From contig NC_007493.2 in the NCBI RefSeq assembly GCF_000012905.2, forward strand, positions 2,310,001 through 2,342,000: a stretch of 32,000 nucleotides of DNA. The letters are read 5' to 3'. This DNA is from Cereibacter sphaeroides 2.4.1. GTDB taxonomy: Bacteria; Pseudomonadota; Alphaproteobacteria; Rhodobacterales; Rhodobacteraceae. Positions 1 through 26,522 of the stretch are shown here, piece after piece; the stretch's first letter is position 1, and every line of letters begins with the position of its first letter. The position numbers and the translations under genes are program-made. A model generated the notes under the pieces. It saw only the letters and a program-made list of their open reading frames with translations. It ran no database searches and was not told the DNA's origin.

Positions 1-287
1 TGGTTCTCGAAGTCGAAGCGCGGCAGCGTGTCGTCGGGCTGTGGTTGAAGGAAGACCGCCTCGATCCGGCCCTCGGCATGGGCGCGCAGCTGCGGCATCC
101 GCCCCCGGTCGAGCAGGTTCGCCACGAGCCCGGTGATGAAGACCGTCTTGCCGGCCCGCGACAGGCCGGTGACACCGACCCGGATCACCGGCTCGAAGAA
201 GGTTTCGGAGACGGTGCTGACGGCGCCCTCGATGCCGCGCGCCACACCGTCGGTCAGTCTGCGGAAAACCACGCGCCTGCCTCTCAT
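1..287 (-). CDS. YcjX-like P-loop ATPase, N-terminal fragment (gene continues past window start)
   Basis: Reverse-strand ATG at 287-285. My translation is MRGRRVVFRRLTDGVARGIEGAVSTVSETFFEPVIRVGVTGLSRAGKTVFITGLVANLL... It carries the VTGLSRxGKTxFIT Walker-A block typical of YcjX/DUF463 proteins. The listed + ORF 45-329 is its antisense shadow. Confidence 0.7.
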   Translation of the reverse strand, partial: MRGRRVVFRRLTDGVARGIEGAVSTVSETFFEPVIRVGVTGLSRAGKTVFITGLVANLLDRGRMPQLRAHAEGRIEAVFLQPQPDDTLPRFDFEN

Positions 288-513
288 TGTGCCGCTCTCA
301 GGATAGGCGGCCCTTGCCCATGGATGTAGGCGCGCCGGGCCGCTGTGCCAACAGGCCGCAGCGGAAGTGCCCGGAGGTGGCCGCCGAGGGGCCGCGATGC
401 TTCCCCTCCCGGCCCGCGCCGCAACCCCGACCCCTCGCCCCCGCCATTCGCGCTTCGTGAATGGCGGGCCTCGCCCGCTTGGCAGCGCGGGGCTTGAATG
501 CTAGGGGGCCGTC

Positions 514-1281
514 ATGCCGAGATATGCGCTCAGGATCGAATATGACGGGGGCCCCTTCGCGGGCTGGCAGCGGCAGGCCGCGCAGGCCTCCGTGCAGGGG
601 GCGATCGAGACGGCGCTCGGCAGGCTCGAGCCCGGCCCCCACACGATCGCCGCGGCGGGGCGGACCGACACCGGCGTCCATGCGAGCGGACAGGTCGCCC
701 ATTGCGACCTTGTCAGGGAGTGGGATCCGTTCCGCCTCGCGGGGGCGCTGAATGCGCATCTGAAGCCCCTGCCCGTCGCCATCGTCGCCGCAGCACGGGT
801 GCCGGAGGAGTTCCACGCCCGCTTTTCGGCCGTCGAGCGGCGCTATCTCTTCCGGCTGCTCGCGCGCCGTGCGCCCGAGGTCCACGACCGCGGCCGGGTC
901 TGGCGCGTGCCCCATCCGCTCGATCCGGAGGCGATGCGCGCGGGCGCGGCCCATCTGGTGGGACGGCACGATTTCACCACCTTCCGCGCCGCGGGCTGTC
1001 AGGCCGCCTCGCCGGTCAAGACGCTCGACGCGCTCACGCTCGAGACAGTGGAGGGGATGAACGGCACCGAATACCGCTTCCACCTGCGCGCGCGGAGCTT
1101 CCTGCACAATCAGGTCCGCTCCATCGTGGGCACGCTCGAACGTGTGGGCGCGGGCGCATGGACGCCCGATCAGGTGCGCGAGGCTCTGGACGCCCGCGAC
1201 CGCGCCGCCTGCGGGCCGGTCAGCCCGCCGCAGGGGCTCTATCTGACCGGCGTGGGCTATCCGGCCGACCCGTTCGCCTGA
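514..1281 (+). CDS. truA: tRNA pseudouridine(38-40) synthase TruA
   Basis: ATG at 514 preceded by AGGGGG. The 255-aa product starts [21 protein letters not shown] and has the catalytic GRTDTGVHA motif and a typical TruA length. Confidence 0.95.
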
Positions 1282-1482
1282 GGCGCGACGGTCCGAGCCT
1301 TTCCCCCTGCCCGCAGACCTCAAGCCTCCCGGGCGGCCAGCCCGATCCGCCGCGGGCGGTTCGGTGGCACCAGGGATAGGGGGGAAAGCTGCTCGGGTCT
1401 CGCCGGGCGCTGCCCGCCGCCCGGCGCGCCTTGCGCAGGCCGGCGGTCCGGGTGGGCACCGCGTCGGACGCCCGCCGACCGC

Positions 1483-3570
1483 TCAGGCGTCGGTCAGATG
1501 CGGCTCGTTCAGGTCCTTGAGCAGCCGTCCGTGCCGGCGCACCTCCGAGAGCACGGCGCCGAAGGTCTCGAACCCCCGCCCCTGCAGCATCGGCAGCAGC
1601 TTGAGGAAGGCATCCGCCGTGGCCACCGTGTCGCCGATGGCCGTGTGCCGCGCCTCCTCGGGGATGGTGATACCGAGCCGGTGGGTCAGCGCGTCGAGAC
1701 TGTGCACGTCGCTCTGCCCGAAGAGCACCGCCGAGAGCAGCACGGTATCGAGGATCGGATTGTCGAAGCGGCGGCCGATCAGCGGCTCGGCCCGGCGCAG
1801 GAATTCCATGTCGAAGGGGGCGTTGTGGGCCACCAGCACCGCGCCCTCGGCGAACTTGTGGAAGCGGCGCCCCACCTCGACGATGTCGGGCGCCTCGGCC
1901 ACCATCGCATCGGTGATGCCATGGACCTCGGTCGAGGAGGGCGGGATCGGCCGGTGCGGATTGACCAGCGTGTCGAGCACCTCGGCCTCGACCCGGCGGC
2001 CGTTCACGATCCGCACCGCGGCGATCTGCACGATCTCGTCCTGCGAGGGCATGAGGCCCGTCGTCTCGGTATCGAAGACGACATAGGTCAGATCCTCGAG
2101 CCGCGCCTCGGCCACCTTCTCGTAGCGCGCCTTCGACAGAAGCTCGAAATCATAGACCACGGCGCGCGGAATGGGCCGCGGGCGGCGGCCCGTGCGGCGC
2201 GCGGTGCGCAGCGGCAGGCAGAGGGCGGAGGCGCCGGCCCCCGCGGGCTCGGGCCAGATCTCGGTCGTGTGGGTCGAAAGCACCGTGCGCCCCGTCACCT
2301 CGGGCACGCCCGGCTCGAGCGGCTCGCCGAGCCAGTCCTCGAGAAGGCCCACGGGCAGCGGCTCGCCGTGCCAGACGAGCCGCAGCATGGCCTCGGTGCC
2401 GTCCTCGGTCAGGGTCACGCGGAAATCGTGGCCGGTGCGCCGGGCCGCCACCCGGGCGGCCAGCGTCGCCACGAGGCCGATCACCTCGAAGCCGTTGCAG
2501 CGCAGGAGGAGCGGCGCCTCGCCGATCTCGGCCGAGAGGCCCGCCTGCTCCATCCGGGCGTGCAGCCCGTCGAGCAGGTCCGAGGCGCGCGTGAGCGACA
2601 GCGGCCAGCCGTCGTGGCGGCTCTCGTCGTGGCGCGCGCCGAGTTCGGTCACGGCGGCGGCGAGACCCGCCGCCTCCTGCCGCAGCGCGCGGTCCATGTC
2701 AGGGGGCGGGCAGCTGCCGGGCGGCAGCACCTCGAACAGCGTCTGGAGGTTCGCCGCCGGCCGCCGGATCCGGTCGAAGACCTCGGCCAGCAGCGCCTCG
2801 CGCCGGGCGTAGGAGGCCAGCGCCGAGGTCACGTCGCGCAGCGTGAGCACATAGCCGGGCTTCGTCGTCTCGCCCCCGATCAGCCGCATCCGCGCGGCCA
2901 GCACCCGCGCCCCCACGACCGTGGTGCAGAGGATGTCCGAGGCCGCATCGGGATCGCCCGCCTCGATCAGCCGCCGGTGCGCATGGCGGATCGGCCCGTC
3001 GCGCAGATAGTCGAAGAGGTTGCGGTCGAGCCCCGGCGCGCCGGCCGTATTCATCAGGTCGGTCGCGGGGCCGTTGTAGAAGACGAGCTGATGGTCGCCC
3101 GAGCAGAGCAGCAGCCCCACCGGCACGTCCGACAGAAGCGCCTCGAGCCGCGCCTTCTCCGAGGACAGCCGCGAGGTCTCGCGCGCCACCGACTCGGCCA
3201 GCGCGTCGCGCGTCTCGGCGAGGGTGAGGGCGGTCGCCGAGGCGGCCGGCGCCAGATCGCCCAGATAGCGGGCGGTCGGCTCCTCGATGCCGCCGTCGAT
3301 GCGGGCATGGGCGCGGGCGCGCAGCTTCGAGGCCAGCCGGATGATCGGCAGCGCCACATTGGCGTCGAAGAGATACCAGATCCAGGTGACGAGCCCGAGG
3401 ATCACGAGCCCCGCGACGAGACCCACCTGCTCGAAGGCGGGCAGAAGCTCGGGGGCGTCGAGGCGCCGGTAGGCGAGGAAGAGCCCGATCGCCACCGCCA
3501 CATTCGCCCCGCCCGCGAGCGCCGCGAAGAAGAGCAGGATCCGCACGCGCAGGTTGAGGCGGTCGAGCAT
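1483..3570 (-). CDS. Membrane sensor protein: 2 TM + HAMP-like + PAS-like + degenerate histidine-kinase core fused to C-terminal DEDDh 3'-5' exonuclease (DnaQ/epsilon-like)
   Basis: 695-aa ORF with ATG at 3570, 3 nt after the upstream stop. N-terminal hydrophobic helices are ILLFFAALAGGANVAVAIGLFLA and VGLVAGLVILGLVTWIWYLF. The exonuclease motifs are VVFDTETTGL (ExoI), VAHNAPFDMEFL (ExoII) and HTAIGDTVATADAF (ExoIII, H-x4-D). The central region resembles DHp plus HATPase domains but lacks their key residues. Confidence 0.85.
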   Translation of the reverse strand: MLDRLNLRVRILLFFAALAGGANVAVAIGLFLAYRRLDAPELLPAFEQVGLVAGLVILGLVTWIWYLFDANVALPIIRLASKLRARAHARIDGGIEEPTARYLGDLAPAASATALTLAETRDALAESVARETSRLSSEKARLEALLSDVPVGLLLCSGDHQLVFYNGPATDLMNTAGAPGLDRNLFDYLRDGPIRHAHRRLIEAGDPDAASDILCTTVVGARVLAARMRLIGGETTKPGYVLTLRDVTSALASYARREALLAEVFDRIRRPAANLQTLFEVLPPGSCPPPDMDRALRQEAAGLAAAVTELGARHDESRHDGWPLSLTRASDLLDGLHARMEQAGLSAEIGEAPLLLRCNGFEVIGLVATLAARVAARRTGHDFRVTLTEDGTEAMLRLVWHGEPLPVGLLEDWLGEPLEPGVPEVTGRTVLSTHTTEIWPEPAGAGASALCLPLRTARRTGRRPRPIPRAVVYDFELLSKARYEKVAEARLEDLTYVVFDTETTGLMPSQDEIVQIAAVRIVNGRRVEAEVLDTLVNPHRPIPPSSTEVHGITDAMVAEAPDIVEVGRRFHKFAEGAVLVAHNAPFDMEFLRRAEPLIGRRFDNPILDTVLLSAVLFGQSDVHSLDALTHRLGITIPEEARHTAIGDTVATADAFLKLLPMLQGRGFETFGAVLSEVRRHGRLLKDLNEPHLTDA

Positions 3571-3573
3571 GGC

Positions 3574-3963
3574 TCAGCCCCCCTCGCCCAGCAGCCGGCG
3601 CACCTCCTCGCGCAGGGCCTTCAGCTCGAACGGTTTCGAGATGAAGCCGTCGGCCCCGAGCGCGAGCCCCTTCTTGCGCTCGATGGCCGAGCCGCGGGCC
3701 GTCATCATCAGGATCTTGACGTGGGCGAGCGTCGGATCGAGCCGCACGCCCTGACAGATCTCGTAGCCGGAGACCTCGGGCAGCATCACGTCGAGCAGCA
3801 CGAGATCGGGATGGGTCGAGCGGATGCGGCCCAGCGCCTCCGCGCCGCTGGCCACCCGGTCGTGCTCGTAGCCTTCGCGCGTAATCAGATAGTCGAGCGC
3901 GATGGCGATATTGTCCTCGTCCTCCACAACGAGGATCCGGCGCTTTCTGGCTCCATCGGCCAT
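3574..3963 (-). CDS. Stand-alone response-regulator receiver (CheY-like)
   Basis: 129 aa with ATG at 3963, 1 nt after the upstream stop, and a GGGAGGGG Shine-Dalgarno. The acidic pocket is VVEDED, the phospho-acceptor context is LVLLDVMLP, and MMTARG (Thr) and SKPF (Lys) are present. There is no output domain. Confidence 0.9.
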   Translation of the reverse strand: MADGARKRRILVVEDEDNIAIALDYLITREGYEHDRVASGAEALGRIRSTHPDLVLLDVMLPEVSGYEICQGVRLDPTLAHVKILMMTARGSAIERKKGLALGADGFISKPFELKALREEVRRLLGEGG

Positions 3964-3964
3964 G

Positions 3965-4486
3965 TCACCCCTCCCTGCAGGCCGCCTTCAGCAGTTCGTC
4001 CTCCTCCCCGACCGGCGACCAGCCGGTGCCGGTGAGGGTGCCGTCGGGCCGGAGTTCCGACCCGGTCTCGAGATTCGCCGTGCGCCGGCCTCCGCAGTCG
4101 AAGGCCATGGGAACGCGCTGGGTGTTGTGCCAGCGCTGAACCACCACCACGTCGGCCCGCCGGATGCCCGGATCGCTCTCCGACCGGAGCAGCCCGGTGC
4201 GGTCGAGCGCCATGAAGCGCGTGGTGACCGGAAAGAGCATCGTCCAGGGCCGGAGGCCCACGCGGTCCTCGGGCGTCGAGATCATCACGACCTCGGCCGG
4301 CAGCGCCGCGGCGACGCGCGGATACCAGGTGTATTCGTTCCAGATCGAGAAGAAGAGCATCCCCGCCCCCGCCGCGATCGGCACGATCCATTTCGGCAGC
4401 CGCCGGCGGCTGAGGAGGCGCAGGAGCAGCGCGATCCCGGCAAGACCGGCTCCGGCGGCGAGGGTGGCGAGGAGGTCCATGACCAT
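3965..4486 (-). CDS. Hypothetical membrane protein (two N-terminal TM helices plus about 110-aa soluble domain)
   Basis: 173-aa ORF with strong third-position G/C bias on hand translation. It is tightly packed between the NTase gene (10-nt gap) and the receiver gene (1-nt gap). TM segments are LLATLAAGAGLAGIALLLRLL and IVPIAAGAGMLFFSIW. I recognise no family. Confidence 0.7.
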   Translation of the reverse strand: MVMDLLATLAAGAGLAGIALLLRLLSRRRLPKWIVPIAAGAGMLFFSIWNEYTWYPRVAAALPAEVVMISTPEDRVGLRPWTMLFPVTTRFMALDRTGLLRSESDPGIRRADVVVVQRWHNTQRVPMAFDCGGRRTANLETGSELRPDGTLTGTGWSPVGEEDELLKAACREG

Positions 4487-4496
4487 GGCGGGGCCT

Positions 4497-6317
4497 TCAG
4501 GTGCGCGCGCCGCGGGCAGAGCCCAGCGCGGATTGCATGGTGCGCACGACGACGAAGGCGTCGCGCAGGTGACTGCGCTCGAAATCCGACAGGTCCGAGG
4601 GGGCGAGGAAATTGTCCGGCGCGCGGCCCGACCGGATCAGCCGCGCCTGGTTTTCGAGCCGGATCTGGGCGATCATGTCATAGGCCTCGATCAGGTCGCG
4701 CGCGCCCGAGACCGAGATCACGCCCGCATTCTCGGCCGTGTGCAGCCGGGCGCGCGTGTTCACGGCGCCGAGCTCGCCGATCAGCGCATAGACGCGGCCG
4801 AGGTCGATCACCGGCACGACACCGTTGTGCTTGAGATCGATGTGGTTCTTGTGCTCGCCCGACCGGATGGTGGCGAAGCCGCGGATCAGCCCCAGCGGTG
4901 GCATGTGCTTCAGCGAATTCGCGATCATGTGCGCGACGAAGATCGAGTTCTTCGCGGCCATCCCCAGCGTGTCGGCCTGAAGCTCGTGGAACAGGCTCTC
5001 GTCGCCGCCGATGGGGCGCAGGTCGAACATGACCGACGACAGCATCTGCGCCATCGGGTCGGGCCGGTCGATCCAGCCGAGGAAATACTGCCGCCAGACC
5101 GCGAGCGGCTGCCGCCAGCGCGGGTTGGTGGCCATCATCTCGCCCGGGCAATAGACATAGCCGCAGGCGTCGAGCCCGTCCGAGACGAAGGCCGCGAGCG
5201 CGGAAAAATAGGGCTCGTCGGCCGGCAGCGTCTTGTCGGACAGGATCAGGCAATTGTCCTGATCCGAGACGCCGGTCTGCTCCTGCCGCCCCTGGCTGCC
5301 GCAGGCGCACCAGCAATAGGCCACCGGCGGCGGCCCGAGCTCGGCCTCGGCGAGCGCGAGCAGGCGGCGCGTCACCGTGTCGGAGATGTCGGTGATGAGC
5401 CGCGTGACCACCTCGTGCGAATTGTGCCCCGCCACGAGCTGCACGAGGAGCTTCGGGATCCGCGCCGTCACCGCCTTCAGTTCGTCGAGCGACTCGGCCG
5501 TGGCCGCATCGCGCACCAGCTGCGCCGATGAGACGGCCTGAAAGCGGGTGAGGTCGGTCTGGGTGATCATGCCGACGAGACGGCCCTCCTCGACCACCGG
5601 CAGATGGCCGATGCGCCGCTCGAGCATCACATGCAGGATGTCCGACCCCAGCGCCTCGGGCGCCAGCGCAATCGGGTCGCGGGTCATCACCTCGGCCACC
5701 GGGGTCGACGGATCGAGCCCAGTGGCCACGACCTTGTTCGTCATGTCGCGGGTGGTGACGATGCCGAGGAAGGCGCTGCCCTCGACCACGCCCAGCGACG
5801 AGACGCCCGCGTCGCGCATCTTCATGGCGGCGGCGCGGATCGTCTCGGCCGGGCCGCAGGTCACGGGCTTGCGCGCCATGAGGTCGGCCACCTTCTGCGT
5901 CGTGAGGTCGGAGGCGCGGTAGCCTTGCGTCCGCCGCCGGGTGAAGAACCGCTCGAAGGCCGGCGAGGCCGCGAAGAGCTGGCGGAATTCGTCGGCGGGC
6001 AGCATGAGCAGCACGCCCTCCGAGGTGGACTGCGCCGTGGTCGCGGCGCGGCCGTCGCGCATGAGGCCCCGTTCGCCGAAGGAGTTGCGCGGGCCCAGCA
6101 CCGAGATCACGTCGCCGGACGGCTCGAGGATCTCCACCCCGCCCCGCTTGACGAGATAGAGGCCAGTCAGCCGCTCGCCGTGACGGTAGATCGTCTCGCC
6201 GGCGGCGATCTCCCTGCGGCTGAAGCAGCCGGCGACACGCGCCAGCTCGTCCCGCGGCAGGCTGTCGTAGGGATGCACCGTCTCCAGAAAGCTCACGATG
6301 GTCTGCACGTCTTCCAT
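4497..6317 (-). CDS. cNMP-binding + tandem CBS + DUF294-type (GlnD-like, pol-beta fold) nucleotidyltransferase with DUF294_C-like substrate-binding domain
   Basis: The ORF track starts at a GTG at 6332. I prefer the ATG at 6317 (MEDVQTIVSF...), which has GAGGAG 4 nt upstream. The N-terminal cyclic-nucleotide-binding fold is GLYLVKRGGVEI...FGERGL. It is followed by two CBS repeats and the NTase signature CGSQGRQEQTGVSDQDN (G-S ... D-x-D). The C-terminal region is helical. Confidence 0.9.
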   Translation of the reverse strand: MEDVQTIVSFLETVHPYDSLPRDELARVAGCFSRREIAAGETIYRHGERLTGLYLVKRGGVEILEPSGDVISVLGPRNSFGERGLMRDGRAATTAQSTSEGVLLMLPADEFRQLFAASPAFERFFTRRRTQGYRASDLTTQKVADLMARKPVTCGPAETIRAAAMKMRDAGVSSLGVVEGSAFLGIVTTRDMTNKVVATGLDPSTPVAEVMTRDPIALAPEALGSDILHVMLERRIGHLPVVEEGRLVGMITQTDLTRFQAVSSAQLVRDAATAESLDELKAVTARIPKLLVQLVAGHNSHEVVTRLITDISDTVTRRLLALAEAELGPPPVAYCWCACGSQGRQEQTGVSDQDNCLILSDKTLPADEPYFSALAAFVSDGLDACGYVYCPGEMMATNPRWRQPLAVWRQYFLGWIDRPDPMAQMLSSVMFDLRPIGGDESLFHELQADTLGMAAKNSIFVAHMIANSLKHMPPLGLIRGFATIRSGEHKNHIDLKHNGVVPVIDLGRVYALIGELGAVNTRARLHTAENAGVISVSGARDLIEAYDMIAQIRLENQARLIRSGRAPDNFLAPSDLSDFERSHLRDAFVVVRTMQSALGSARGART

Positions 6318-6343
6318 GAGGCTCCTCGACACTGCACCGGATC

Positions 6344-6372
6344 GGCGCGCCCCCCTGCCCGGGGGACGCGCC
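6344..6372 (-). other. Intra-operon GC hairpin between symporter stop and NTase start
   Basis: GGCGCGCCCCCC (6344-6355) pairs with GGGGGACGCGCC (6361-6372). This gives 11 pairs plus one C.A mismatch and a 5-nt loop. No U-tract follows. Confidence 0.35.
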
Positions 6373-6380
6373 CTTGGCCC

Positions 6381-8198
6381 TCAGTGGGCCGTGGCCTTGC
6401 CGGCACCGCGCGGAATGCGGATGCTTTCGACCAGATCGACCACCTGACGCGGCGGAGCCTTCGTCACCGCCGAGACCCCGAAGGCCACGGCGAAGTTCAG
6501 GATGGCGCCGATGGTGCCGATCGACAGCGGCGAGATGCCGAAGAAGTAGTTGGCGGGAACGTCTTCATACATCGCGGTGCCGGGGATGAAGAACCAGCCC
6601 TTGTAGAGGAAGATGTAGACCGCGGTGAAGATCAGGCCGACGAGCATCCCGAGGATCGCGCCTTCCTTGTTCACGCGCTTCGAGAAGATCCCCATCATCA
6701 GCGCCGGGAAGATCGTCGCGGCGGCCAGACCGAAGGCCAGTGCCACCACCTGCGCGGCAAAGCCGGGCGGGTTGAGGCCGAGCCAGGTGGCGATCGCGAT
6801 CGCGCCGGTCATCGAGATCCGCGCGGCCAGAAGCTCGCCCTTCTCCGAGATGTTCGGGTTGATCGACCCCTTGATGAGGTCGTGCGAGATCGCAGACGAG
6901 ATGGCGAGCAGCAGGCCCGCCGCGGTCGAGAGGGCGGCAGCCAGCGCGCCGGCGGCCACGAGCGCGATCACCCAGCCCGGAAGGGCCGCGATCTCGGGGT
7001 TGGCGAGCACCATGATGTCGTTGTCGATCTTGGTGACTTCGTTGCCGGCCCAGCCGCGCTCGGCGGCCACCTCGGCCATCGCCGGGTTCTTGTCGTTGTA
7101 GTACTGGATCTTGCCGTCGCCGTTCAGGTCTTCCATCACGAGCAGGCCGGTCTGTTCCCAGGTCTTCACCCAGTTCAGGCGCGGATCGGTCTGGATCGCC
7201 TCGACCGAGATCGCATCGGCATCCAGCGCATTGCCCGTCACGGCGCCGGGCCACATGGTGGTGGTCAGGTTCAGGCGCGCCATCGAGCCCACGGCCGGAG
7301 CGACGGTATAGAGGAGCGCGATGAAGACGAGCGCCCAGCCGGCCGAGGAACGGGCGTCGGCCACCTTCGGCACGGTGAAGAAGCGGATGATGACGTGCGG
7401 CAGGCCCGCGGTGCCGATCATCAGCGACATGGTGAAGAGGAACATGTTCAGCATCGAGGGCGTATCGGCGGTGTAGGCGGTGAAGCCCAGTTCCGTGACC
7501 ACCTGGTCGAGCTTGGCGAGGAACGCCTGGTCGCCGCCCGCGGGCGCATAGTCGCCGATCAGGCCGAGCTGCGGCAGGAAGGCCCCCGTCAGCGCGAGCG
7601 AGATGAAGATCGCGGGGATCGTGTAGGCGATGATGAGCACGACATACTGGGCCACCTGCGTGTAGGTGATGCCCTTCATGCCGCCGAACACGGCATAGGC
7701 GAAGACGATCGCCGCGCCGATGTAGAGACCCATGTCGGTCGAGATCTCGAGGAAGCGCCCGAAGGTCACGCCCACGCCGCGCATCTGCCCGATCACATAG
7801 GTGATCGAGATGATGATGAGGCAGACCACCGCCAGAAGCCGGGCGCCGCCCGAATAGAAGCGGTCCCCGATGAATTCCGGCACGGTGAACTTGCCGAACT
7901 TGCGCAGGTAGGGCGCGAGCAGCAGGGCCAGAAGCACATAGCCGCCGGTCCAGCCCATGAGGAAGGCCGACTGGGTGTAGCCGCCGGCCGGGGCGAGCGC
8001 GATGATGCCCGCCATCGAGATGAAGGAGGCCGCCGACATCCAGTCCGCGCCCGTGGCCATGCCGTTCATGACCGGGTGCACGCCCTGACCGGCGGCATAG
8101 AACTCTGCGGTCGAACCCGCCCGGGCCCAGATCGCAATCCCGATGTAGATGGCAAAGGTGATGCCGACCACGATCAGGTTGAGAGTGAATTGATCCAT
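6381..8198 (-). CDS. Sodium:solute symporter (SSS family), VC_2705-like subfamily; probable acetate/monocarboxylate permease
   Basis: 605 aa with ATG at 8198. The N-terminus IAIWARAGSTAEFYAAGQGVHPVMNGMATGADWMSAASFISMAG is typical of ActP-like cation/acetate symporters. The protein is polytopic and hydrophobic throughout. It lies directly downstream of a DUF4212-type small subunit and acs. Confidence 0.9.
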   Translation of the reverse strand: MDQFTLNLIVVGITFAIYIGIAIWARAGSTAEFYAAGQGVHPVMNGMATGADWMSAASFISMAGIIALAPAGGYTQSAFLMGWTGGYVLLALLLAPYLRKFGKFTVPEFIGDRFYSGGARLLAVVCLIIISITYVIGQMRGVGVTFGRFLEISTDMGLYIGAAIVFAYAVFGGMKGITYTQVAQYVVLIIAYTIPAIFISLALTGAFLPQLGLIGDYAPAGGDQAFLAKLDQVVTELGFTAYTADTPSMLNMFLFTMSLMIGTAGLPHVIIRFFTVPKVADARSSAGWALVFIALLYTVAPAVGSMARLNLTTTMWPGAVTGNALDADAISVEAIQTDPRLNWVKTWEQTGLLVMEDLNGDGKIQYYNDKNPAMAEVAAERGWAGNEVTKIDNDIMVLANPEIAALPGWVIALVAAGALAAALSTAAGLLLAISSAISHDLIKGSINPNISEKGELLAARISMTGAIAIATWLGLNPPGFAAQVVALAFGLAAATIFPALMMGIFSKRVNKEGAILGMLVGLIFTAVYIFLYKGWFFIPGTAMYEDVPANYFFGISPLSIGTIGAILNFAVAFGVSAVTKAPPRQVVDLVESIRIPRGAGKATAH

Positions 8199-8213
8199 CC
8201 TGTGCGGCCCCCC

Positions 8214-8495
8214 TTACTCGTCCACGCCGTATTCACGGTCGAGCTTGTTCATCCGCCAGGCGTAGACGAAGATCAGCACGAGGAAGACGTAGATGGAGCC
8301 CTGCTGGGCGAACCAGAAGCCGAGGTCGGCCCCGCCCACCATGATGCCCTCGAGCGCGGGGCGCAGGATGATGCCCAGTCCGAACGAGCAGGCGAACCAG
8401 ATCGCCAGCGAGATGAGGATGATGCGGACGTTCGCCGACCAGTAGGCATTCGACGACGTCCGGTCTGATGTCACATGACCAGTTCTGTCCACCAT
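8214..8495 (-). CDS. DUF4212 putative solute:sodium symporter small subunit
   Basis: 93 aa with ATG at 8495 and a GGGAGGAA Shine-Dalgarno 5 nt upstream. The motif AYWSANVRIILISLAIWFACSFGLGI and the second helix match the small hydrophobic partner usually encoded just upstream of VC_2705-type symporters. Confidence 0.85.
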   Translation of the reverse strand: MVDRTGHVTSDRTSSNAYWSANVRIILISLAIWFACSFGLGIILRPALEGIMVGGADLGFWFAQQGSIYVFLVLIFVYAWRMNKLDREYGVDE

Positions 8496-8527
8496 TGGAC
8501 TTCCTCCCTGTAGGTTTCTTCTTCATG

Positions 8528-8555
8528 CCCGGTCCCTCCTCCTCGAGGGACCGGG
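8528..8555 (-). other. Intra-operon hairpin between adk stop and DUF4212 start
   Basis: CCCGGTCCCTC pairs with GAGGGACCGGG to give an 11-bp stem (8528-8538 / 8545-8555) with a 6-nt loop. On the transcript it lies 6 nt after the adk TAA. No U-tract follows. Confidence 0.4.
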
Positions 8556-8561
8556 GCTCGT

Positions 8562-9251
8562 TTACGCCGACACGCGGCCCACGATACGGCCCAGCGCGCT
8601 CGCGATCTCGTCGATGGCTCCCATCGCATCGATCCGTTCGAGCACGCCGCAGCCGTCGTAGTAGGCGATCAGCGGGGCCGTCTGCGCATGGTAGGCGGCG
8701 AGCCGCGCTCCCACGGTGTCGGCATTGTCGTCGGGACGGCGCTTGAACTCCGTCCCGCCGCACTTGTCGCAGGTCCCCGCGCGCGCGGGCTGCTTGAAGC
8801 TGTCGTGGTATCCCTCACCGCAGGCGGCGCAGGTGCTGCGGCCCGACACCCGCTCGACCATCGCCCCGTCATCGACCTCGAGGCTGATCGCCGCCGTGAC
8901 CCGCTGGCCCGCCCGCTCGAGGAGCCCGTCGAGGGCCGCGGCCTGCCCCGCGGTGCGGGGAAAGCCGTCGAGGATGATGCCGCGCGCGACATCGGGCTGC
9001 GCCATCCGGTCGGCGAGGATCGCCAGCACGATCTCGTCGGACACGAGGCCCCCCGCCTCCATCACCGCCTTCGCGGCCATGCCTGCGGGCGTGCCCGCGG
9101 CCACCGCCGCGCGCAGCAGATCGCCCGTCGAAAGCTGGACGAGGCCGAAGCGCTCCTCGAGCATCCGGGCCTGGGTGCCCTTGCCCGCGCCCGGAGGCCC
9201 GAGCAGGATCAGCACGGGCGGACGGGTGGTCGTCTCGGTCACGCCCTCCAT
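8562..9251 (-). CDS. adk: Adenylate kinase (long form, Cys4 lid)
   Basis: 229 aa with P-loop LILLGPPGAGKGTQ and GFPRT. The lid has CAACG...CDKCG. The ATG at 9251 lies 3 nt after the acs stop codon. Confidence 0.9.
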   Translation of the reverse strand: MEGVTETTTRPPVLILLGPPGAGKGTQARMLEERFGLVQLSTGDLLRAAVAAGTPAGMAAKAVMEAGGLVSDEIVLAILADRMAQPDVARGIILDGFPRTAGQAAALDGLLERAGQRVTAAISLEVDDGAMVERVSGRSTCAACGEGYHDSFKQPARAGTCDKCGGTEFKRRPDDNADTVGARLAAYHAQTAPLIAYYDGCGVLERIDAMGAIDEIASALGRIVGRVSA

Positions 9252-9254
9252 GCC

Positions 9255-11216
9255 TCAGCCCCGGTTCTTGCGGTTGGCGATCAGGTCGTCGACCACCGAC
9301 GGATCGGCCAGCGTCGTGGTGTCGCCGAGCGAGCCGAAGTCGTTCTCGGCGATCTTGCGCAGGATGCGGCGCATGATCTTGCCCGAGCGGGTCTTGGGCA
9401 GGCCCGGCGCCCACTGGATCACGTCCGGCGAGGCGATGGGGCCGATCTCGGTGCGGACCCATTTCACCAGATCCTTGCGCAGCTCCTCGGTCGGCTGGAC
9501 CCCGTTCATCAGCGTGACATAGGCATAGATGCCCTGCCCCTTGATGTCGTGCGGATAGCCCACCACCGCGGCTTCGGCGACCTGCGCATGGGCGACGAGC
9601 GCGGATTCCACCTCGGCGGTGCCCATCCGGTGGCCCGAGACGTTGATGACGTCATCGACCCGGCCCGTGACCCAGTAATAGCCGTCCGCATCGCGGCGGC
9701 AGCCGTCGCCGGTGAAGTAATAGCCCTTGTATTGCGAGAAATAGGCCTCTTCGAACCGCTCGTGGTCGCCCCAGAGCGTGCGCATCTGCCCCGGCCAGCT
9801 GTCGGCGATGCAGAGCACCCCCTCGGTCGCGGTTTCGTGCAGCTCGTGCCCGTCGGTCGGGTCGAGGATCACCGGCTTCACCCCGAAGAAGGGCTTCGAG
9901 GCCGCGCCCGGCTTCACCGGGATCGCGCCCGGCAGCGGCGTGATCATGTGGCCGCCGGTCTCGGTCTGCCAGAAGGTGTCGACGATCGGGCAGCGGCCCT
10001 TGCCGACATGGGTGTTGTACCAGCTCCAGGCCTCGGGGTTGATCGGCTCGCCCACCGAGCCCAAGAGCTTCAGCGACGACAGGTCGTACTTGTCGACCCA
10101 TTCCGGCCCGAGGCCCATCAGCGAGCGGATCGCCGTGGGCGCGGTGTAGAACTGGTTCACCTTGTGCTTCTCGCAGACGGCCCAGAAGCGGCCCGCATCG
10201 GGATAGGTCGGCACGCCCTCGAACATGAGCGTGGTCGCGCCGTTCGCCAGCGGGCCGTAGACGATGTAGCTGTGGCCCGTGACCCAGCCCACGTCCGCGG
10301 TGCACCAGAAGACGTCGCCGTCATGGTAGTCGAAGGTCATCTGATGGGTCATGGCGGCATAGGTCAGATAGCCGCCCGAGGTGTGCACGACCCCCTTCGG
10401 CTTGCCGGTCGAGCCCGAGGTATAGAGGATGAAGAGCGGATCCTCGGCATTCACCTCCTCGATCGGGCAGTCGGGCGAGGCGTGGCGCATCAGCTCCTTC
10501 ACGTCCACGTCGCGGCCGTCCATCCAGTGGATCTGGTCGCCCGTGTGCTTGACGACGAGGCAGCGCACCCGGTCCGAGCAATGGAGAAGGGCTGCGTCGG
10601 TGTTCGACTTCAAGGGCGTGCGCCGGCCGCCACGCGGAGCCGTGTCGGCGGTGATGACCACCTTGGCCTGACAGTCGTTGATCCGGTTCGCCAGCGCGTC
10701 GGGCGAGAAGCCCGCGAAGACGACGGAATGGATGGCGCCGATCCGGGCGCACGCCAGCATCGCATAGGCGGCCTCGGGGATCATCGGCAGATACATCACC
10801 ACCCGGTCGCCCTTGCGCACGCCCTGGCTCACCAGCACGTTGGCCATGCGGCAGACGTTGTCGTGCAGCTCCTGATAGCTGATGTGCTGGGCCGGCACGT
10901 TCGGATCGTCCGGCTCCCAGATGATCGCGGTCTGCTTGGCCCGCGTCGCCAGATGCCGGTCGATGCAGTTCCAGGCGATGTTCAGCGTGCCGTCCTCGAA
11001 CCACTTGATCGAGACCTCGCCCGGCCGGAAGTTCGTGTTCTTGACCTTGGTGTAGGGCTTGATCCAGTCGAGCCGCTTGCCCTGTTCGCCCCAGAACGCC
11101 TCCGGGTCGGCCACGGATGCAGCATACATCCGCTCGTAGCCGGCCGCGTCGACATGGGCTTGCGCAATGAAATCTGCCGACGCGGTATAGACCGCATTCG
11201 CCTGAGCGTGATCCAT
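9255..11216 (-). CDS. acs: Acetyl-CoA synthetase (AMP-forming)
   Basis: 653 aa with ATG at 11216 and a GGAGGAG Shine-Dalgarno. The AMP-binding motif [20 protein letters not shown] and the C-terminal [17 protein letters not shown] (acetylatable Lys context) are present. Confidence 0.97.
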
Positions 11217-13923: not shown

Positions 13924-15381
13924 ATGACCTTCACCCGGCGCTGGCTGCTCTCGGCGCTTCTGGCCAGCGCGGCCACGCCGGTGCTGGCCGAGGCCCCGCT
14001 CACCTCGCCGCGCCCGCCGCGCCGCGGCTTTCTCGAGCCGCCGCCCGAGGCGGGCGACCTCGTCGCGCGCGCGGCCCTCGGGGGCGCGGCGGCCTATGTG
14101 GTGGCCGATGCCCGCAGCGGCACCGTGCTCGAAGCCGCGAATGCGGCGCTCCGCCTGCCGCCCGCCAGCACGGCCAAGACGGTGACGGCCCTCTACGGGC
14201 TCGAGACGCTCGGGCCCGACTTCCGCTTCACGACCCGGCTCCTCGCCACGGGACCGATCACGAACGGCATCCTGCAGGGCGACCTCATCCTCTCGGGCTC
14301 GGGCGATCCCACGCTTTCGACCGATGCGCTGGGCGAGATGGCGGCGCGGCTCCGCGCCCGCGGCATCACCGGCATCACCGGCCGCTATCTGGCCGATGCG
14401 AGCGCGCTGCCCGCCGTGCCCTTGATCGATCCCGAACAGCCCGACCATGTGGGCTACAACCCCGCCCTCTCCGGCCTCAACCTCAACTTCAACCGCGTGC
14501 ATTTCGAGTGGAAGCAGGCGGCGAAGGGCTGGTCGGTGACGATGGACGCCCGCGCTGAGCGCTTCGTGCCGCCCGTGTCGATGGCGCGGATGAAGGTCGT
14601 GACGCGCGACCTGCCGATCTACACCTATGCCGGCGATCAGGGCTCGGACAGCTGGACGGTGGCGAGCGGCGCCCTCGGTGCGGCGGGCAGCCGCTGGCTG
14701 CCGGTGCGCCATCCCGAGGCCTACACCGCCGAAGTCTTCCAGACCCTCGCCCGCGCGCAGGGCATCGAACTGCCCGCGGCGCAGGTCGTCCGGGTCCGCC
14801 CCGAAGGCGCGGCGCTGGTCGAGTGGCAGAGCGACCCCCTGCGCGAGATCCTGCGCGACATGCTGAAGTTCTCCACCAACATCACGGCCGAGGCGGTGGG
14901 CCTTGCGGCCTCGGGTGCGCCGTCGCTCGCGCAGTCGGCCGCCGCCATGAGCGCCTGGGCCAACCGGCGCTTCGGCCTCTCGACCGCGTTCCACGACCAT
15001 TCCGGGCTGGGCGGCGGCTCGCTCGTCTCGGCCGCGGACATGGTGACGGCGCTCCTTGCCGCCGAGCGCGAGGGGCTCGGCCTGCGCCCGCTCCTGAAGC
15101 GGACCGAGATCGGCGGCGGCAAGGGCACGAAGAAGGGCGCGCGACGCATCGCCGTCGCGGCCAAGACCGGCACGCTCAACTTCGTGTCGGGCCTCGTGGG
15201 CATCGCCACGGCCCAAGACGGGCGCGACCTCGTCTTCGCCATCTATTGCGCCGACCGCGACCGCCGGTCGGCCCTGCCGATGGAGGCGCGCGAGCGCCCG
15301 CCCGGCGGCTCGGCCTGGCTCGGCCGGGCCCGCGCGCTGCAGCGCGCCCTCATCGAACGCTGGGCCGCCCTTCCCGCCTGA
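13924..15381 (+). CDS. dacB: D-alanyl-D-alanine carboxypeptidase/endopeptidase (PBP4, peptidase S13)
   Basis: I prefer the ATG at 13924 (GAGGATG upstream), which puts the signal peptide MTFTRRWLLSALLASAATPVLA at the N-terminus. The motifs SxxK (STAKTVTA) and KTG (AKTGTL) are present. The length and layout fit PBP4. Confidence 0.85.
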   Translation: MTFTRRWLLSALLASAATPVLAEAPLTSPRPPRRGFLEPPPEAGDLVARAALGGAAAYVVADARSGTVLEAANAALRLPPASTAKTVTALYGLETLGPDFRFTTRLLATGPITNGILQGDLILSGSGDPTLSTDALGEMAARLRARGITGITGRYLADASALPAVPLIDPEQPDHVGYNPALSGLNLNFNRVHFEWKQAAKGWSVTMDARAERFVPPVSMARMKVVTRDLPIYTYAGDQGSDSWTVASGALGAAGSRWLPVRHPEAYTAEVFQTLARAQGIELPAAQVVRVRPEGAALVEWQSDPLREILRDMLKFSTNITAEAVGLAASGAPSLAQSAAAMSAWANRRFGLSTAFHDHSGLGGGSLVSAADMVTALLAAEREGLGLRPLLKRTEIGGGKGTKKGARRIAVAAKTGTLNFVSGLVGIATAQDGRDLVFAIYCADRDRRSALPMEARERPPGGSAWLGRARALQRALIERWAALPA

Positions 15382-15414
15382 CCGCTCGCCACCCCACCGC
15401 CTTCCGTCTTTCAC

Positions 15415-15466
15415 TCTGCCCAAATATCCTCGGGGGAGCCGCCCCGGAGGGGCGGCCGGGGGCAGA
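15415..15466. terminator. Nested hairpin in convergent intergenic region (dacB / terB-like)
   Basis: The inner stem is GCCGCCCC (15438-15445) / GGGGCGGC (15449-15456) with a 3-nt loop. The outer stem is TCTGCCC (15415-15421) / GGGCAGA (15460-15466). It lies between two convergent stop codons. Confidence 0.45.
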
Positions 15467-15540
15467 CAGCCCCCGTCGACGCCAGACCCCGCAAAGCGGT
15501 GCGAGGGCGCGTGACCTTCCTGCGACGGAGCGGCGATGCC

Positions 15541-15984
15541 TCAGACCAGCATGTGACGGGCGCGCGCGCCGCGCTCGATCGCGGCCGCATGGAGGCGGTC
15601 GATGTCGAGCTCGTTGCGGATCTCCTCGAGCATCCGGAGCTCGGGCTGTCCCAGAGCGCCGTCCGCCGCGGCCACGTCGCAGGCCAGCGCATAGGCCGTC
15701 TCGTAGAGCCGGTCCTCGAGCGCCGCCCGGATCAGGCCGAAGAGCGCATCGAGCCCCTCGTCCTCCTCGAAGAGGTCGATGATCGTCTGGGCGATGGGCC
15801 GGATGCGGTCGCCGTCGTAGCCCGCGAAGATCGGCAGATGGTTCACGATCCGCTCGATGGCGATCAGCTCGACCGTCCGCACCGTCTCGTCCGAGAAGGA
15901 CACCGCGATCATGATGGCCACGAGGGCATCCTGAGGGCTGAGCGAGGAGAGCGTATCGGCCAAGGGAGGCCTCCTGAATTCCAT
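15541..15984 (-). CDS. TerB-like (tellurite-resistance TerB domain) protein
   Basis: The sequence [32 protein letters not shown]...[35 protein letters not shown] fits the TerB four-helix repeat pattern. The start is ambiguous. The ATG at 15984 has no Shine-Dalgarno. An in-frame TTG at 15963 has AGGAGG 6 nt upstream. Confidence 0.7.
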
Positions 15985-16220
15985 GTTTTGGCGCACAATA
16001 TGGCCTGCCCCCCGGCCCGGCAAGTCGGGCCGAACCGGATCACGGAGGCGTCAGCCGCGCCGGGCCGCGCTCTGCCCGAAACCGGGCCTGCGGCGCTGCT
16101 CCCGCCACCGGGGCGAGGCGCGCCCGGGCCTTGGGAATATTGACGCGCTCCCCCCCCGGCAATAGAGGACGGAGGTTCGGGGCGGCACGGGGCCGCCCGA
16201 CTGCCCGAGGAACTCAGCCC

Positions 16221-22933: not shown

Positions 22934-23056
22934 CGGTGCGCGACGTTATCTTTATCGACCACTGTCTCCCTCGCCGGCAACAGTCATTCGATCTTGCCCT
23001 GACTGAGCCGAGCCGCCGCACTTCCGCGGGCGGCATACCTGAGAGGAGACACCACG

Positions 23057-23263
23057 ATGGCCAAAGGCACCGTGAAATGGTTCAACGCCACCAAAGGCTA
23101 CGGCTTCATCGCCCCTGAAGGCGGCAAGAAGGACGTGTTCGTCCACATCACCGCGCTCGAGCGTGCGGGCATCCGCGCCCTGAACGACGGCCAGGCCGTG
23201 ACCTTCGACATCGAATCGGGCCGCGACGGCCGCGAATCGGCCACGAACATCTCGATCGCCTGA
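23057..23263 (+). CDS. cspA: Cold-shock protein (CspA family)
   Basis: 68 aa beginning MAKGTVKWFNATKGYGFIAPEGGKKDVFVHITAL, with RNP1 (KGYGFI) and RNP2 (VFVHI). AGGAG lies upstream. Confidence 0.95.
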   Translation: MAKGTVKWFNATKGYGFIAPEGGKKDVFVHITALERAGIRALNDGQAVTFDIESGRDGRESATNISIA

Positions 23264-23282
23264 GGACACTTCCTCGGCGGAC

Positions 23283-23308
23283 AGGGGCAGGCTCCGGCCT
23301 GCCCTTTT
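23283..23308 (+). terminator. Rho-independent terminator of cspA
   Basis: GGGCAGGC (23285-23292), loop TCCG, GCCTGCCC (23297-23304), followed by TTTT (23305-23308). Confidence 0.8.
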
Positions 23309-23386
23309 GCATGTCAGCCCCTGCCCCCATTGCAGCGCCGCCGCTGCGGACGCAGAGTGGCGCCGCGACGGTTGGAGCGCACGGCC

Positions 23387-24325
23387 ATGTTGGAAGCGGA
23401 CTACCACGACCTCCTCGATCCCGAGACCTGGCAGTTCATCCGCGACAGCGCCCGCCATTTCCCGCCCGACAGCGACCGGCTGCCGCTCGCCGAACAGCGC
23501 GCGCTTCACGCTGGCCTCTGCCGCGCCTTCCGCGCCCCGCTGCCGCCGGACGTGACCCTGACGGACCGGACCTTCGGCACCCGCCCCTGCCGCCTCTATG
23601 AACCGGCGGCGCCTGCGGGAACGGTGCTCTTCCTGCATGGCGGCGGCTTCGTTCTGGGCGGCCTCGACGCGTTCGACGATCTCTGCGCCGAGATCGCGGC
23701 CGGAACCGGCCTGCGCACCGTCGCGGTGGACTATCGGCTGGCGCCAGAATATCCCCATCCGGCGGCCTTCCACGATGCGCTGCGGGCGGCGCAGGCGGTG
23801 GCGCAGGCCTTTCCGGGGCCGCTCGTGCTGATGGGCGAGGATGCGGGCGGCGCGCTGGCCGCCTCGGTCGCCCATGCGCTGCGCGGCCGCCGGGCGCTGG
23901 CCGGACAGGTGCTGGTCTGCCCGATGCTCGGCGGCGCCCTCGACCGGGTCAGCGCCCTCACCCACGCCACCGCGCCCATGCTCTCGCGGCAGGACGTGCT
24001 CCGCATGGGCGCCCTCCGGCACGGCGGGCGCGAGCCTGCCGCCGATCCCACCGCGGACGCGCTCCGCGACACCGACTTCCGCGGCCTGCCGCCCACGCTG
24101 ATCGTCACCGCCCAGTGCGATCCGCTGACCGACGATGGCCGCGCCTACCGCGACGCCATCCGGGCGGCCGCGGGCCGGGCGCGCTGGATCGAGGAGCCGG
24201 GCCTCGTCCACGGCTTCCTCCGCGCCCGCCACCGCGTGCCCCGCGCCGCGGCGAGTTTCGCCCGCATCCTCCAGGCCGCCTCCGCCATGGCCCACGACCG
24301 CTTCGCCGCCGCCCGCCCGGGCTGA
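23387..24325 (+). CDS. Alpha/beta hydrolase, hormone-sensitive-lipase (family IV esterase)-like, with atypical nucleophile elbow
   Basis: ATG at 23387 (MLEADYHDLL...). The oxyanion motif is LHGGGFVLGG. The elbow reads GEDAGG instead of GDSAGG. The acid (QCDPLTDDG) and histidine (LVHGFL) motifs are present. Confidence 0.85.
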   Translation: MLEADYHDLLDPETWQFIRDSARHFPPDSDRLPLAEQRALHAGLCRAFRAPLPPDVTLTDRTFGTRPCRLYEPAAPAGTVLFLHGGGFVLGGLDAFDDLCAEIAAGTGLRTVAVDYRLAPEYPHPAAFHDALRAAQAVAQAFPGPLVLMGEDAGGALAASVAHALRGRRALAGQVLVCPMLGGALDRVSALTHATAPMLSRQDVLRMGALRHGGREPAADPTADALRDTDFRGLPPTLIVTAQCDPLTDDGRAYRDAIRAAAGRARWIEEPGLVHGFLRARHRVPRAAASFARILQAASAMAHDRFAAARPG

Positions 24326-24418
24326 GACACGCCGCCGCCGTCGCGGAGAGGTCGCTGGGAAGACAGACGGCCCGCCCCTGCCGCGGCAGGACGACAGGAA
24401 CACTGCAGGAAGGCCCCC

Positions 24419-25924: not shown

Positions 25925-25951
25925 ACCGCCCGCGGCCTCGTCCGCGGCAGC

Positions 25952-25986
25952 GCCGTGGGCAGGGGTTCGATGCCCCTGCCCACGGC
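25952..25986. terminator. Bidirectional terminator hairpin (betC / blc convergent)
   Basis: 14-bp perfect stem (25952-25965 / 25973-25986) with the 7-nt loop TTCGATG. Confidence 0.7.
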
Positions 25987-26006
25987 TCCCCCGCCGCCCG
26001 GTGGCC

Positions 26007-26522
26007 CTACGGACGCGTGCGCTCGAGAGCGGCCGCATCGTAGCCGCTCCGCTCGAATAGATCGCGCGCTGCGCGCAGCTCCTCGGGCGCGATCTTCGGG
26101 TCGCGGTGCAGCACCCAGCCTGCAATCCGCGTGGGCGTGCCGACCACGAACGTGCGCCCGTCGCGCGACTGGCCGAGGATCCAGTAGTCGCCGCCGAAGG
26201 GCACGCCCTGCAGGTTCACCGTCAGCTTGCCCGGCGCCACCACCTCGGCCGTCCCCGAGATCTCGCGCAGCGTGCCGCCCACCCGGCAGCGGTTGGTCAG
26301 CGCGATGCGCCCGTCCGGCAGCGGCTGGTAGTCGGCCGTGGTGCCCGTGCAGCCCCTCTGGAACGGGGCGGGGTAGCTCGCCACCTCATACCAGCGGCCC
26401 GCGAGATCGACCGGCTGCACCGCCGGATCGAGGAAGAGCGGCGCCCCCAGCCAGCGCTGCGAGGGCACATGCCGCTCGCAGGCCACCAGCGCAAGAAGGG
26501 CGAGCAGGGCCACTGCTTTCAT
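26007..26522 (-). CDS. blc: Bacterial lipocalin (Blc-like) lipoprotein
   Basis: ATG at 26522 with AGGGAG upstream. The product begins MKAVALLALLALVAC (lipobox) and carries the GRWYEVASYP lipocalin signature. It is 171 aa. The upstream part of the listed 268-aa ORF is not coding. Confidence 0.8.
   Translation of the reverse strand: MKAVALLALLALVACERHVPSQRWLGAPLFLDPAVQPVDLAGRWYEVASYPAPFQRGCTGTTADYQPLPDGRIALTNRCRVGGTLREISGTAEVVAPGKLTVNLQGVPFGGDYWILGQSRDGRTFVVGTPTRIAGWVLHRDPKIAPEELRAARDLFERSGYDAAALERTRP

Follow-up and report, generated by a model that had tools for sequence, protein, structure and literature searches.

In a 32,000-nucleotide stretch of Cereibacter sphaeroides 2.4.1 DNA (contig NC_007493.2, positions 2,310,001 to 2,342,000; hereafter the window), we analysed a minus-strand gene that encodes a pseudo-histidine kinase to which a nuclease output is covalently joined; the protein probably connects two-component signalling with a nuclease. 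From the N to the C terminus, the protein is composed of a two-helix membrane anchor, a helical linker, a PAS domain, a DHp-like hairpin, a CA-like domain, a conserved linker and a DEDDh exonuclease (Table 1). The homologues listed in the database are labelled 'exonuclease domain-containing protein', 'DNA polymerase III subunit epsilon' or 'PAS domain-containing protein', and none is labelled as a kinase. The gene belongs to a large pseudokinase-exonuclease family that has so far gone unnoticed. An earlier note on this DNA, which had read the protein as a sensor pseudokinase fused to an exonuclease, knew of no described example of such an architecture; the literature that we searched likewise contained no account of a DEDDh exonuclease joined to a kinase-like sensor.

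This is a large and old family, with at least 580 clusters at 50% identity. Residues 1-485 of the window protein retrieved 900 database proteins at E<=1e-3, the listed full-length ones being 685-718 aa long. A profile of residues 125-485 matched 1202 clusters (50% identity) at E<=1e-3 and 580 at E<=1e-10. Members occur in Alpha- and Gammaproteobacteria, and the database orthologue from Cereibacter sphaeroides is 86% identical to the window protein. To count conserved residues, we built an alignment of 106 sequences, the window protein and 105 representatives of clusters at 50% identity, and all counts out of 106 below refer to it.

Four independent lines of evidence trace the DHp and CA domains to a HisKA-type kinase. 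In the window protein, neither HisKA nor HATPase_c gave a Pfam match at E<=1, and homology was therefore shown via a family profile, structure models and more conservative relatives. The family profile (residues 125-485, 14 members) matched VicK (4i5s) with E=5.4e-4 against all PDB sequences; this alignment spans the PAS and DHp domains and puts Asp266 opposite the His of SHELRTP. Alignment to a genuine kinase with hhalign returned the same register, with Asp266 on the His of THELRTP, at low probabilities (0.1-1%), and this comparison with a single kinase sequence was used for the register only and not as homology evidence. Among more conservative relatives, family members P0354 and P0293 matched a genuine SSF-HisKA-HATPase_c kinase in BLASTP searches with E=3e-13, over 217 residues spanning DHp and CA, and E=2e-10, respectively. 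In total, 128 of 338 family members matched the genuine kinase at E<=1e-5, the window protein itself not being one of them. Sub-threshold Pfam matches to HisKA came up in 29 of 69 diverse members (best E=1e-4) and to HATPase_c in 4.

Structure models led to the same ancestry. When the CA-like domain was modelled alone with AlphaFold2 (AF2; residues 320-462), the model reached a predicted local distance difference test score (pLDDT) of 91.4 and a predicted template-modelling score of 0.87. The 50 best PDB matches of this model in Foldseek were all histidine kinases or kinase-like proteins, with E from 6e-8 to 1e-6 and template-modelling scores of 0.5-0.7, and they include LvrB, CpxA, ThkA, ZraS, HK853, DivL, YycG, EnvZ and KinB. 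In the full-length AF2 model (mean pLDDT 80, from a 95-sequence alignment), residues 322-460 form a compact alpha/beta domain with a pLDDT of 85-90. Foldseek searches with the full-length model returned the PAS-DHp-CA kinases WalK, YF1, VicK and ThkA over 340-465 columns, with E=2e-15 to 1e-11. Both the DHp hairpin and the Bergerat-fold CA domain of HisKA kinases are thus present. The H-box-like peptide EALLAEVFDRIRRPAANLQTLFE quoted in the earlier note is encoded where it had been placed, at 2731-2799(-), and the proposed resemblance of the central region to the HisKA and HATPase_c layout held up in the VicK profile match, in Foldseek searches with both models and in the BLASTP matches of relatives. 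The profile and structure-prediction check that the note had suggested returned a kinase-derived centre and an RNase_T C terminus.

Whereas the fold is retained, the catalytic residues of the kinase are lost. At the position of the phospho-acceptor His, Glu is the commonest residue (59 of 106), the Asp of the window protein is a minority residue (18) and Gln occurs in 7 sequences, the rest having Ala, Val, Thr and others. A single representative, P0145, has a His in the H-box column; this turned out to be a local misalignment, and the sequence contains no intact H-box. A conserved His was found nowhere else in the DHp of the 106 sequences. In the BLASTP alignment with the genuine kinase, and in the same register by hhalign, DLIYRV stands opposite the N-box NLLSNA. 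WRGAPVP takes the place of the G1 box DNGPGIP and DAPGGL that of the G2 box GSGLGL, and the F-box/ATP-lid region has an 11-residue deletion relative to the genuine kinase. Across the 106 sequences, Asn is essentially absent from the N-box helix, and there is no GxGxG of a G2 box. Trp400 occupies the position of the adenine-binding Asp of G1 in 96 of 106, and only Gly402 of DxGxG is retained (W400-x-G402-x-P). The family therefore lacks the phospho-acceptor His, the N, G1 and G2 boxes and the full-length lid of HisKA kinases. The earlier note had read the His-to-Asp replacement, the missing glycine boxes and the degenerate lid from one protein and had asked whether homologues keep the His and G boxes or an intact His lies elsewhere; the losses were borne out and extend across the family. 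From these sequences, we infer that the kinase core is inactive, binding no ATP and accepting no phosphate on a His. The CA-like domain nonetheless appears to keep a function other than ATP binding, because residues of its own (W322, D359, W400, G402, W413, H434 and W439) are each conserved in ~88-100% of diverse members despite the lost ATP motifs. In the window protein, the D359 position is Asn.

The exonuclease domain looks intact and, judged from its motifs, would be catalytically competent. Pfam RNase_T (PF00929) matched residues 497-655 with E=2.4e-38 and 132.7 bits against a cut-off of 24 bits, and TIGR00573 (dnaq) scored 120.7 bits against a cut-off of 71.5. The window protein has all of the catalytic residues D500, E502, D587, H642 and D647, each of which is kept in 103-105 of 106 sequences, in agreement with the earlier note, which had stated that all DEDDh motifs are kept. 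The closest PDB sequences are the PolC exonuclease (2p1j; E=2.6e-27, 38% identity) and E. coli epsilon (E=1.8e-14). By Foldseek, the exonuclease fold superimposes on PolC with a root-mean-square deviation of 1.8 Å and on PolC, epsilon and DinG domains with 1.8-2.4 Å. It shares both this fold and the D-E-D-H-D set with DnaQ/PolC-type exonucleases (E. coli epsilon, T. maritima PolC and the N-terminal domain of DinG). However, these exonuclease domains occur on their own or joined to polymerase, helicase or Cas2 modules, and none is fused to a transmembrane PAS/kinase-like sensor. That the nearest relatives are DNA proofreading domains is no proof of the substrate, be it DNA or RNA.

Among the parts that surround the kinase core, the PAS domain and the helical linker are strongly conserved. 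The loop of the membrane hairpin is only ~12 residues long, and the protein therefore has no periplasmic sensor domain. In the helical linker that follows, the YLGDL motif (Y102-L106) is invariant across 95 Paracoccaceae sequences; Pfam HAMP matched this linker in 5 of 69 family members (best E=2e-6) and gave no match in the window protein. The PAS domain forms a PAS-like alpha/beta unit at residues 150-246 of the full-length AF2 model. Its Pfam match is weak in the window protein (E=0.07), and Pfam PAS was found at E<=1 in 61 of 69 relatives, with a best E of 4e-8 and, in P0187, 33 bits against a cut-off of 22.6. Between the CA-like domain and the exonuclease lies a family-specific motif, which reads RAVVYDFELL in the window protein and RPEFYDFDLL as the family consensus. 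Its residues are conserved in 92 (R469), 91 (Y473), 100 (D474), 97 (F475) and 95 (L477) of 106 sequences, and residues 463-474 have low pLDDT and are poorly ordered in the full-length model.

In the window, the gene is the last of eight that lie head to tail on the minus strand: acs, adk, DUF4212, symporter, DUF294, a 173-aa protein, a receiver and the pseudokinase-exonuclease. A scan for promoters and terminators downstream of the last gene found none. The orphan receiver is CheY-like, with E14/D15, D58, T88 and K110 intact. Its stop codon and the start codon of the pseudokinase-exonuclease gene are separated by a 3 nt gap (TGA-gcc-ATG), with GAGGGGGG just upstream, and the two genes are thus predicted to be translationally coupled.

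To see which neighbours are conserved, we compared 80 Paracoccaceae loci, obtained from a contig scan with very specific peptide patterns that returned only Paracoccaceae, and nine distant loci (L081-L089) from individual look-ups of the encoding contigs. Among the Paracoccaceae loci, the receiver adjoins the pseudokinase-exonuclease gene in 79 of 80; DUF294 is present in 77, the symporter in 69, adk in 66 and acs in 64. The small membrane protein is found in 77 of these loci and is fast-evolving (33-95% identity). An orthologous receiver (41-46% identity, E=1e-30 to 1e-40) lies immediately upstream in seven of the nine distant loci (L082, L083 and L085-L089), which were judged alphaproteobacterial where a taxon name is given. 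DUF294 occurs in four of the nine (L081, L083, L084 and L085). A DUF294-exonuclease pair in the same operon, near actP-like and acs genes, was accordingly found in the window, in 77 of the 80 close loci and in these four distant ones. In the two Rhodospirillales loci L085 and L086, the second gene downstream of the pseudokinase-exonuclease encodes a genuine SSF-like HisKA-HATPase_c kinase (small protein at 9227-9517 and kinase at 9530-12316 in L085; 9126-9434 and 9449-12187 in L086). These kinases of 912-928 aa pass the Pfam HisKA and HATPase_c thresholds, have no receiver domain and resemble the CrbS/CbrA class; either is a plausible phosphodonor for the receiver. The small membrane proteins encoded in between are 96-102 aa long and 46% identical to each other.

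A role in anti-phage defence was rejected: PADLOC returned only generic DEDDh, PDC-S48 and receiver-like matches without system context, and the stable chromosomal acs/adk/symporter synteny speaks against such a role as well.

By analogy with DivL, we favour a reading, at a probability of about 0.5, in which the nuclease is gated by docking of the receiver on the dead kinase core and itself works with DUF294 in the control of short-chain carboxylates. The protein would be a membrane-anchored PAS pseudo-histidine kinase whose DHp and CA domains phosphorylate nothing and serve as a regulatory scaffold for the C-terminal exonuclease. The receiver would be phosphorylated by a separate kinase, which in some Rhodospirillales may be the CrbS/MxtR-like SSF-kinase, or in Cereibacter by a distal kinase or acetyl phosphate. 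Once phosphorylated, it would dock on the DHp-like hairpin in the manner of DivK~P on the pseudokinase DivL, and docking together with PAS input would alter the helical core and switch the exonuclease on or off. The nuclease and the co-transcribed DUF294 protein would then act on a shared nucleotide-bearing substrate, either a 3' nucleic-acid end or a nucleotidylated target, and so tune how acetate and related short-chain carboxylates are taken up and activated. In Pseudomonas, CrbS/R (MxtR/ErdR) controls the DUF294-exonuclease operon at the level of transcription, and such a pathway would be the post-translational counterpart. The conserved operon link to an intact receiver appears to strengthen the suggestion of the earlier note that the dead scaffold passes on a signal, possibly by docking the adjacent CheY, because the receiver is coupled, is adjacent in 79/80 and 7/9 loci and keeps D58, T88 and K110, and because a genuine kinase lies near in L085 and L086.

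Several observations weigh against this docking model. The two gammaproteobacterial loci, L081 and L084, have no adjacent receiver, and docking can therefore not be the only mode of regulation. The receiver orthologue of L083 (8622-8996; Hyphomicrobiales metagenome-assembled genome (MAG), JACKKM010000004.1) has a Gly at the phospho-acceptor position (DLVLTGVTLP). No genuine kinase that could act as phosphodonor is encoded within the window, and the Thr/Asn at position H+4, which serves in receiver dephosphorylation by HisKA kinases, is not conserved (R/A/Q). Moreover, it is not obvious what role DNA proofreading exonucleases, the nearest solved relatives of the nuclease, would have in acetate metabolism.

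The loci L081, L084 and L083 also speak for the main rival, in which the dead core does no more than dimerise and relay a PAS or membrane signal to the exonuclease, and the receiver acts elsewhere without docking on this protein, for example on DUF294 or the symporter or as a phosphate sink for a distal kinase. L081 and L084 keep the whole PAS-DHp-CA-exonuclease protein without the adjacent receiver, L083 pairs it with a receiver that has lost its phospho-acceptor Asp, and the PAS domain and helical linker are strongly conserved. However, an adjacent, translationally coupled receiver is a nearly universal feature of the sampled Alphaproteobacteria, and the DHp helix-1 motif L-R-x-P-x-A-N-L, which forms the receiver-docking face in genuine kinases, has remained conserved after loss of the His. 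We consider a pure relay possible, although doubtful.

The kinases of L085 and L086 would fit another explanation, in which the pseudokinase modulates a genuine kinase, via DHp heterodimers as in RetS-GacS or by sequestering the receiver, and thereby tunes CrbS-like signalling, while the exonuclease is constitutive or separately regulated. Not only is the genuine SSF-HisKA-HATPase_c kinase encoded two genes downstream in both loci, but the DHp-CA region of this type of kinase is also detectably homologous to the pseudokinase core. Nevertheless, most loci, including the window and the 80 Paracoccaceae loci, have no kinase in the cluster, and in every full-length member the core is permanently and covalently joined to a perfectly conserved exonuclease, which points to the nuclease as the regulated output. 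We regard this explanation as improbable. A cryptic active phosphotransfer enzyme, for instance with acyl-phosphate on Asp/Glu266 or ATP in a remodelled pocket, is hardly credible: although 77 of 106 sequences have Glu or Asp at the His position and the CA-like pocket keeps its own invariant residues W400, G402, H434 and W439, the sequences have lost the Asn for Mg-ATP binding, the Asp for adenine binding and both glycine boxes, the lid is 11 residues shorter, the His position also tolerates Gln, Ala, Val and Thr, and there is no conserved His anywhere in the DHp.

Several of the distant loci showed features of their own. In the L083 lineage, a pseudo-receiver is paired with a pseudokinase. 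In both L081 and L084, DUF294 is directly upstream of the pseudokinase-exonuclease gene with DUF4212/SSF alongside, and a 192-aa membrane protein occupies the slot of the 173-aa protein, to which it is not homologous. L084 (JGI metagenome contig Ga0069787_10025281) contains three paralogous PAS-pseudokinase-exonuclease genes, at 1-2066(-), 7001-9130(+) and 14985-16130(+); two of them are each preceded by their own DUF294 gene, and the contig has two SSF-type symporter regions. The module has here expanded locally, in relatives of the acetate-storing Competibacteraceae. A 559-560-aa ABC-F-type ATPase (ABC_tran, ABC_tran_Xtn, ABC_tran) is divergent from the receiver gene in four of the nine distant loci (L082, L083, L088 and L089), and in L082 and L088 a Metallophos phosphoesterase directly follows the exonuclease gene. 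Among the other loci, L056 (CP059262.1, labelled 'MAG: Exiguobacterium profundum' chromosome) has a Paracoccaceae-type SulP-acs-adk-receiver-exonuclease string with 64-85% protein identity to the window and has no symporter, DUF294 or small membrane protein. The assembly is probably mislabelled or chimeric.

Table 1. Positions in the window of the pseudokinase-exonuclease gene, its domains and the other genes of the operon
Feature	Position	Strand	Basis
Pseudokinase-exonuclease gene (membrane anchor/PAS/pseudo-histidine-kinase/DEDDh exonuclease)	1483..3570	-	ATG start, 695 aa open reading frame (ORF)
Two-helix membrane hairpin, residues 7-70	3361..3552	-	Hydrophobic segments; AF2 helices 7-36 and 40-88
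Helical linker, residues 71-147	3130..3360	-	AF2 helix 106-147; YLGDL motif
Cytoplasmic PAS domain, residues 148-246	2833..3129	-	Pfam, VicK alignment, AF2 beta-sheet fold
DHp-like helical hairpin, residues 247-319, degenerate H-box EVFDRIRRPAANL	2614..2832	-	AF2 helices 247-281 and 290-319; HMM/BLASTP homology
Asp266 codon, phospho-acceptor His position	2773..2775	-	Translation; aligned with His of SHELRTP and THELRTP
CA-like (Bergerat-fold) domain without ATP-binding motifs, residues 322-460	2191..2607	-	AF2 and Foldseek
Linker, residues 461-494, family-specific motif R469-x-x-x-Y473-D474-F475-x-L477	2089..2190	-	
DEDDh (DnaQ/PolC-like) 3'-5' exonuclease domain, residues 495-660	1591..2088	-	ExoI FDTETTG, ExoII HNAPFD, ExoIII HTAIGD
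Single-domain CheY-like receiver, 129 aa	3574..3963	-	Pfam Response_reg E=6.5e-26
Small membrane protein, 173 aa	3965..4486	-	No Pfam, NCBIfam or PADLOC match
cNMP-binding/2xCBS/DUF294 nucleotidyltransferase, 611 aa	4497..6332	-	Pfam DUF294 E=9e-49, DUF294_C E=1e-42, CBS, cNMP_binding
VC_2705-family sodium/solute symporter large subunit (ActP/MctC-related)	6381..8198	-	TIGR03648 807 bits vs 321; Pfam SSF
DUF4212 symporter small subunit, 93 aa	8214..8495	-	Pfam DUF4212 E=5e-35; TIGR03647
Adenylate kinase	8562..9251	-	Pfam ADK E=9e-51
Acetyl-CoA synthetase (Acs)	9255..11216	-	TIGR02188 1025 bits vs 725

Among the other genes of the operon, the 173-aa protein, encoded between the DUF294 and receiver genes, has two N-terminal hydrophobic helices and a soluble tail. 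The adenylate kinase, encoded directly after acs in the gene string, carries a zinc-ribbon lid. As the Acs reaction yields AMP, the operon-encoded Adk may recycle the AMP from Acs. Many very long antisense ORFs lie opposite real genes (regions 1364-4035, 5604-8468 and elsewhere, on both strands), for example, one of 845 aa at 1498-4035(+) and one of 954 aa at 5604-8468(+); these are expected because the G+C content is ~70%. Several other long ORFs, such as 22952-26125(-), have no Pfam match, and ORF length alone is no evidence of a gene in this window.

A handful of histidine pseudokinases are known, with DivL as the model, and those regulate other kinases. Like the window protein, DivL of Caulobacter crescentus (PDB 4q20) is a PAS-containing HisKA-type protein in which the phospho-acceptor His is replaced and the DHp/CA fold is kept, and Foldseek placed its CA domain at rank 31 for the CA-like domain. 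This likeness is one of fold and of a replaced His. Whereas DivL has a Tyr in place of the His, the window protein has an Asp and has lost every ATP-binding motif; and whereas DivL has no enzymatic output domain and controls the kinase CckA, here a DEDDh exonuclease is fused to the core within a carboxylate-uptake operon. DivL itself has neither kinase nor phosphatase activity, and its dead kinase core senses the phosphorylated single-domain receiver DivK~P (PMC4211667). Streptomyces PsmA and the pseudokinase version of ChrS are described as signalling without phosphotransfer (PMC12963549; PMC9491836); as far as these accounts of PsmA and ChrS go, they differ from the window protein in having no fused enzymatic output domain and an unrelated biological context. 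CrbS/MxtR/CbrA-type kinases, in which SSF is fused to HisKA-HATPase_c, share their general build with the L085 and L086 kinases, which gave the best direct sequence match to the pseudokinase core. In contrast to the latter, their His, N, G1 and G2 boxes are intact, and they have no exonuclease domain.

The DUF294-DEDDh pairing and its actP/yjcH and acs neighbourhood, compared by domain description, are shared with PP_0354/PP_0353 of Pseudomonas putida, whose P. aeruginosa counterparts we take to be PA3233/PA3232. PP_0353 is described by an RNase_T-type domain only, with no mention of a sensor or kinase-like region, and its link to a two-component system is transcriptional. The pair consists of a cNMP-CBS-DUF294 nucleotidyltransferase and an RNase_T-family exonuclease and is described as the most strongly dependent on CrbS/R (MxtR/ErdR), and the P. 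aeruginosa homologues adjoin actP and yjcH (PMC9927547; bioRxiv 10.64898/2026.09.07.749794). Growth on propionate is lower when either PP_0354 or PP_0353 is deleted, and loss of PP_0353 also impairs growth on pyruvate (PMC9927547; bioRxiv 10.64898/2026.09.07.749794).

A more specific and rather speculative version of the docking model is that DUF294 and the DEDDh exonuclease might form a writer/eraser pair. DUF294 would add nucleotides to a target, either as a 3' tail on a specific RNA or as a nucleotidyl group on a protein such as the symporter or Acs, and the exonuclease would take them off again, with the eraser under the control of the phosphorylated receiver docked on the fossil kinase core. 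If true, this would be a new two-component output, running from receiver to pseudokinase to nuclease, by which carboxylate uptake would be controlled after transcription or translation. Overall, a kinase core that has been permanently inactivated and fused to a hydrolytic enzyme would represent a different kind of two-component output, and the fusion gives a handle on the DUF294/exonuclease pair that travels with acetate permease and acs genes.

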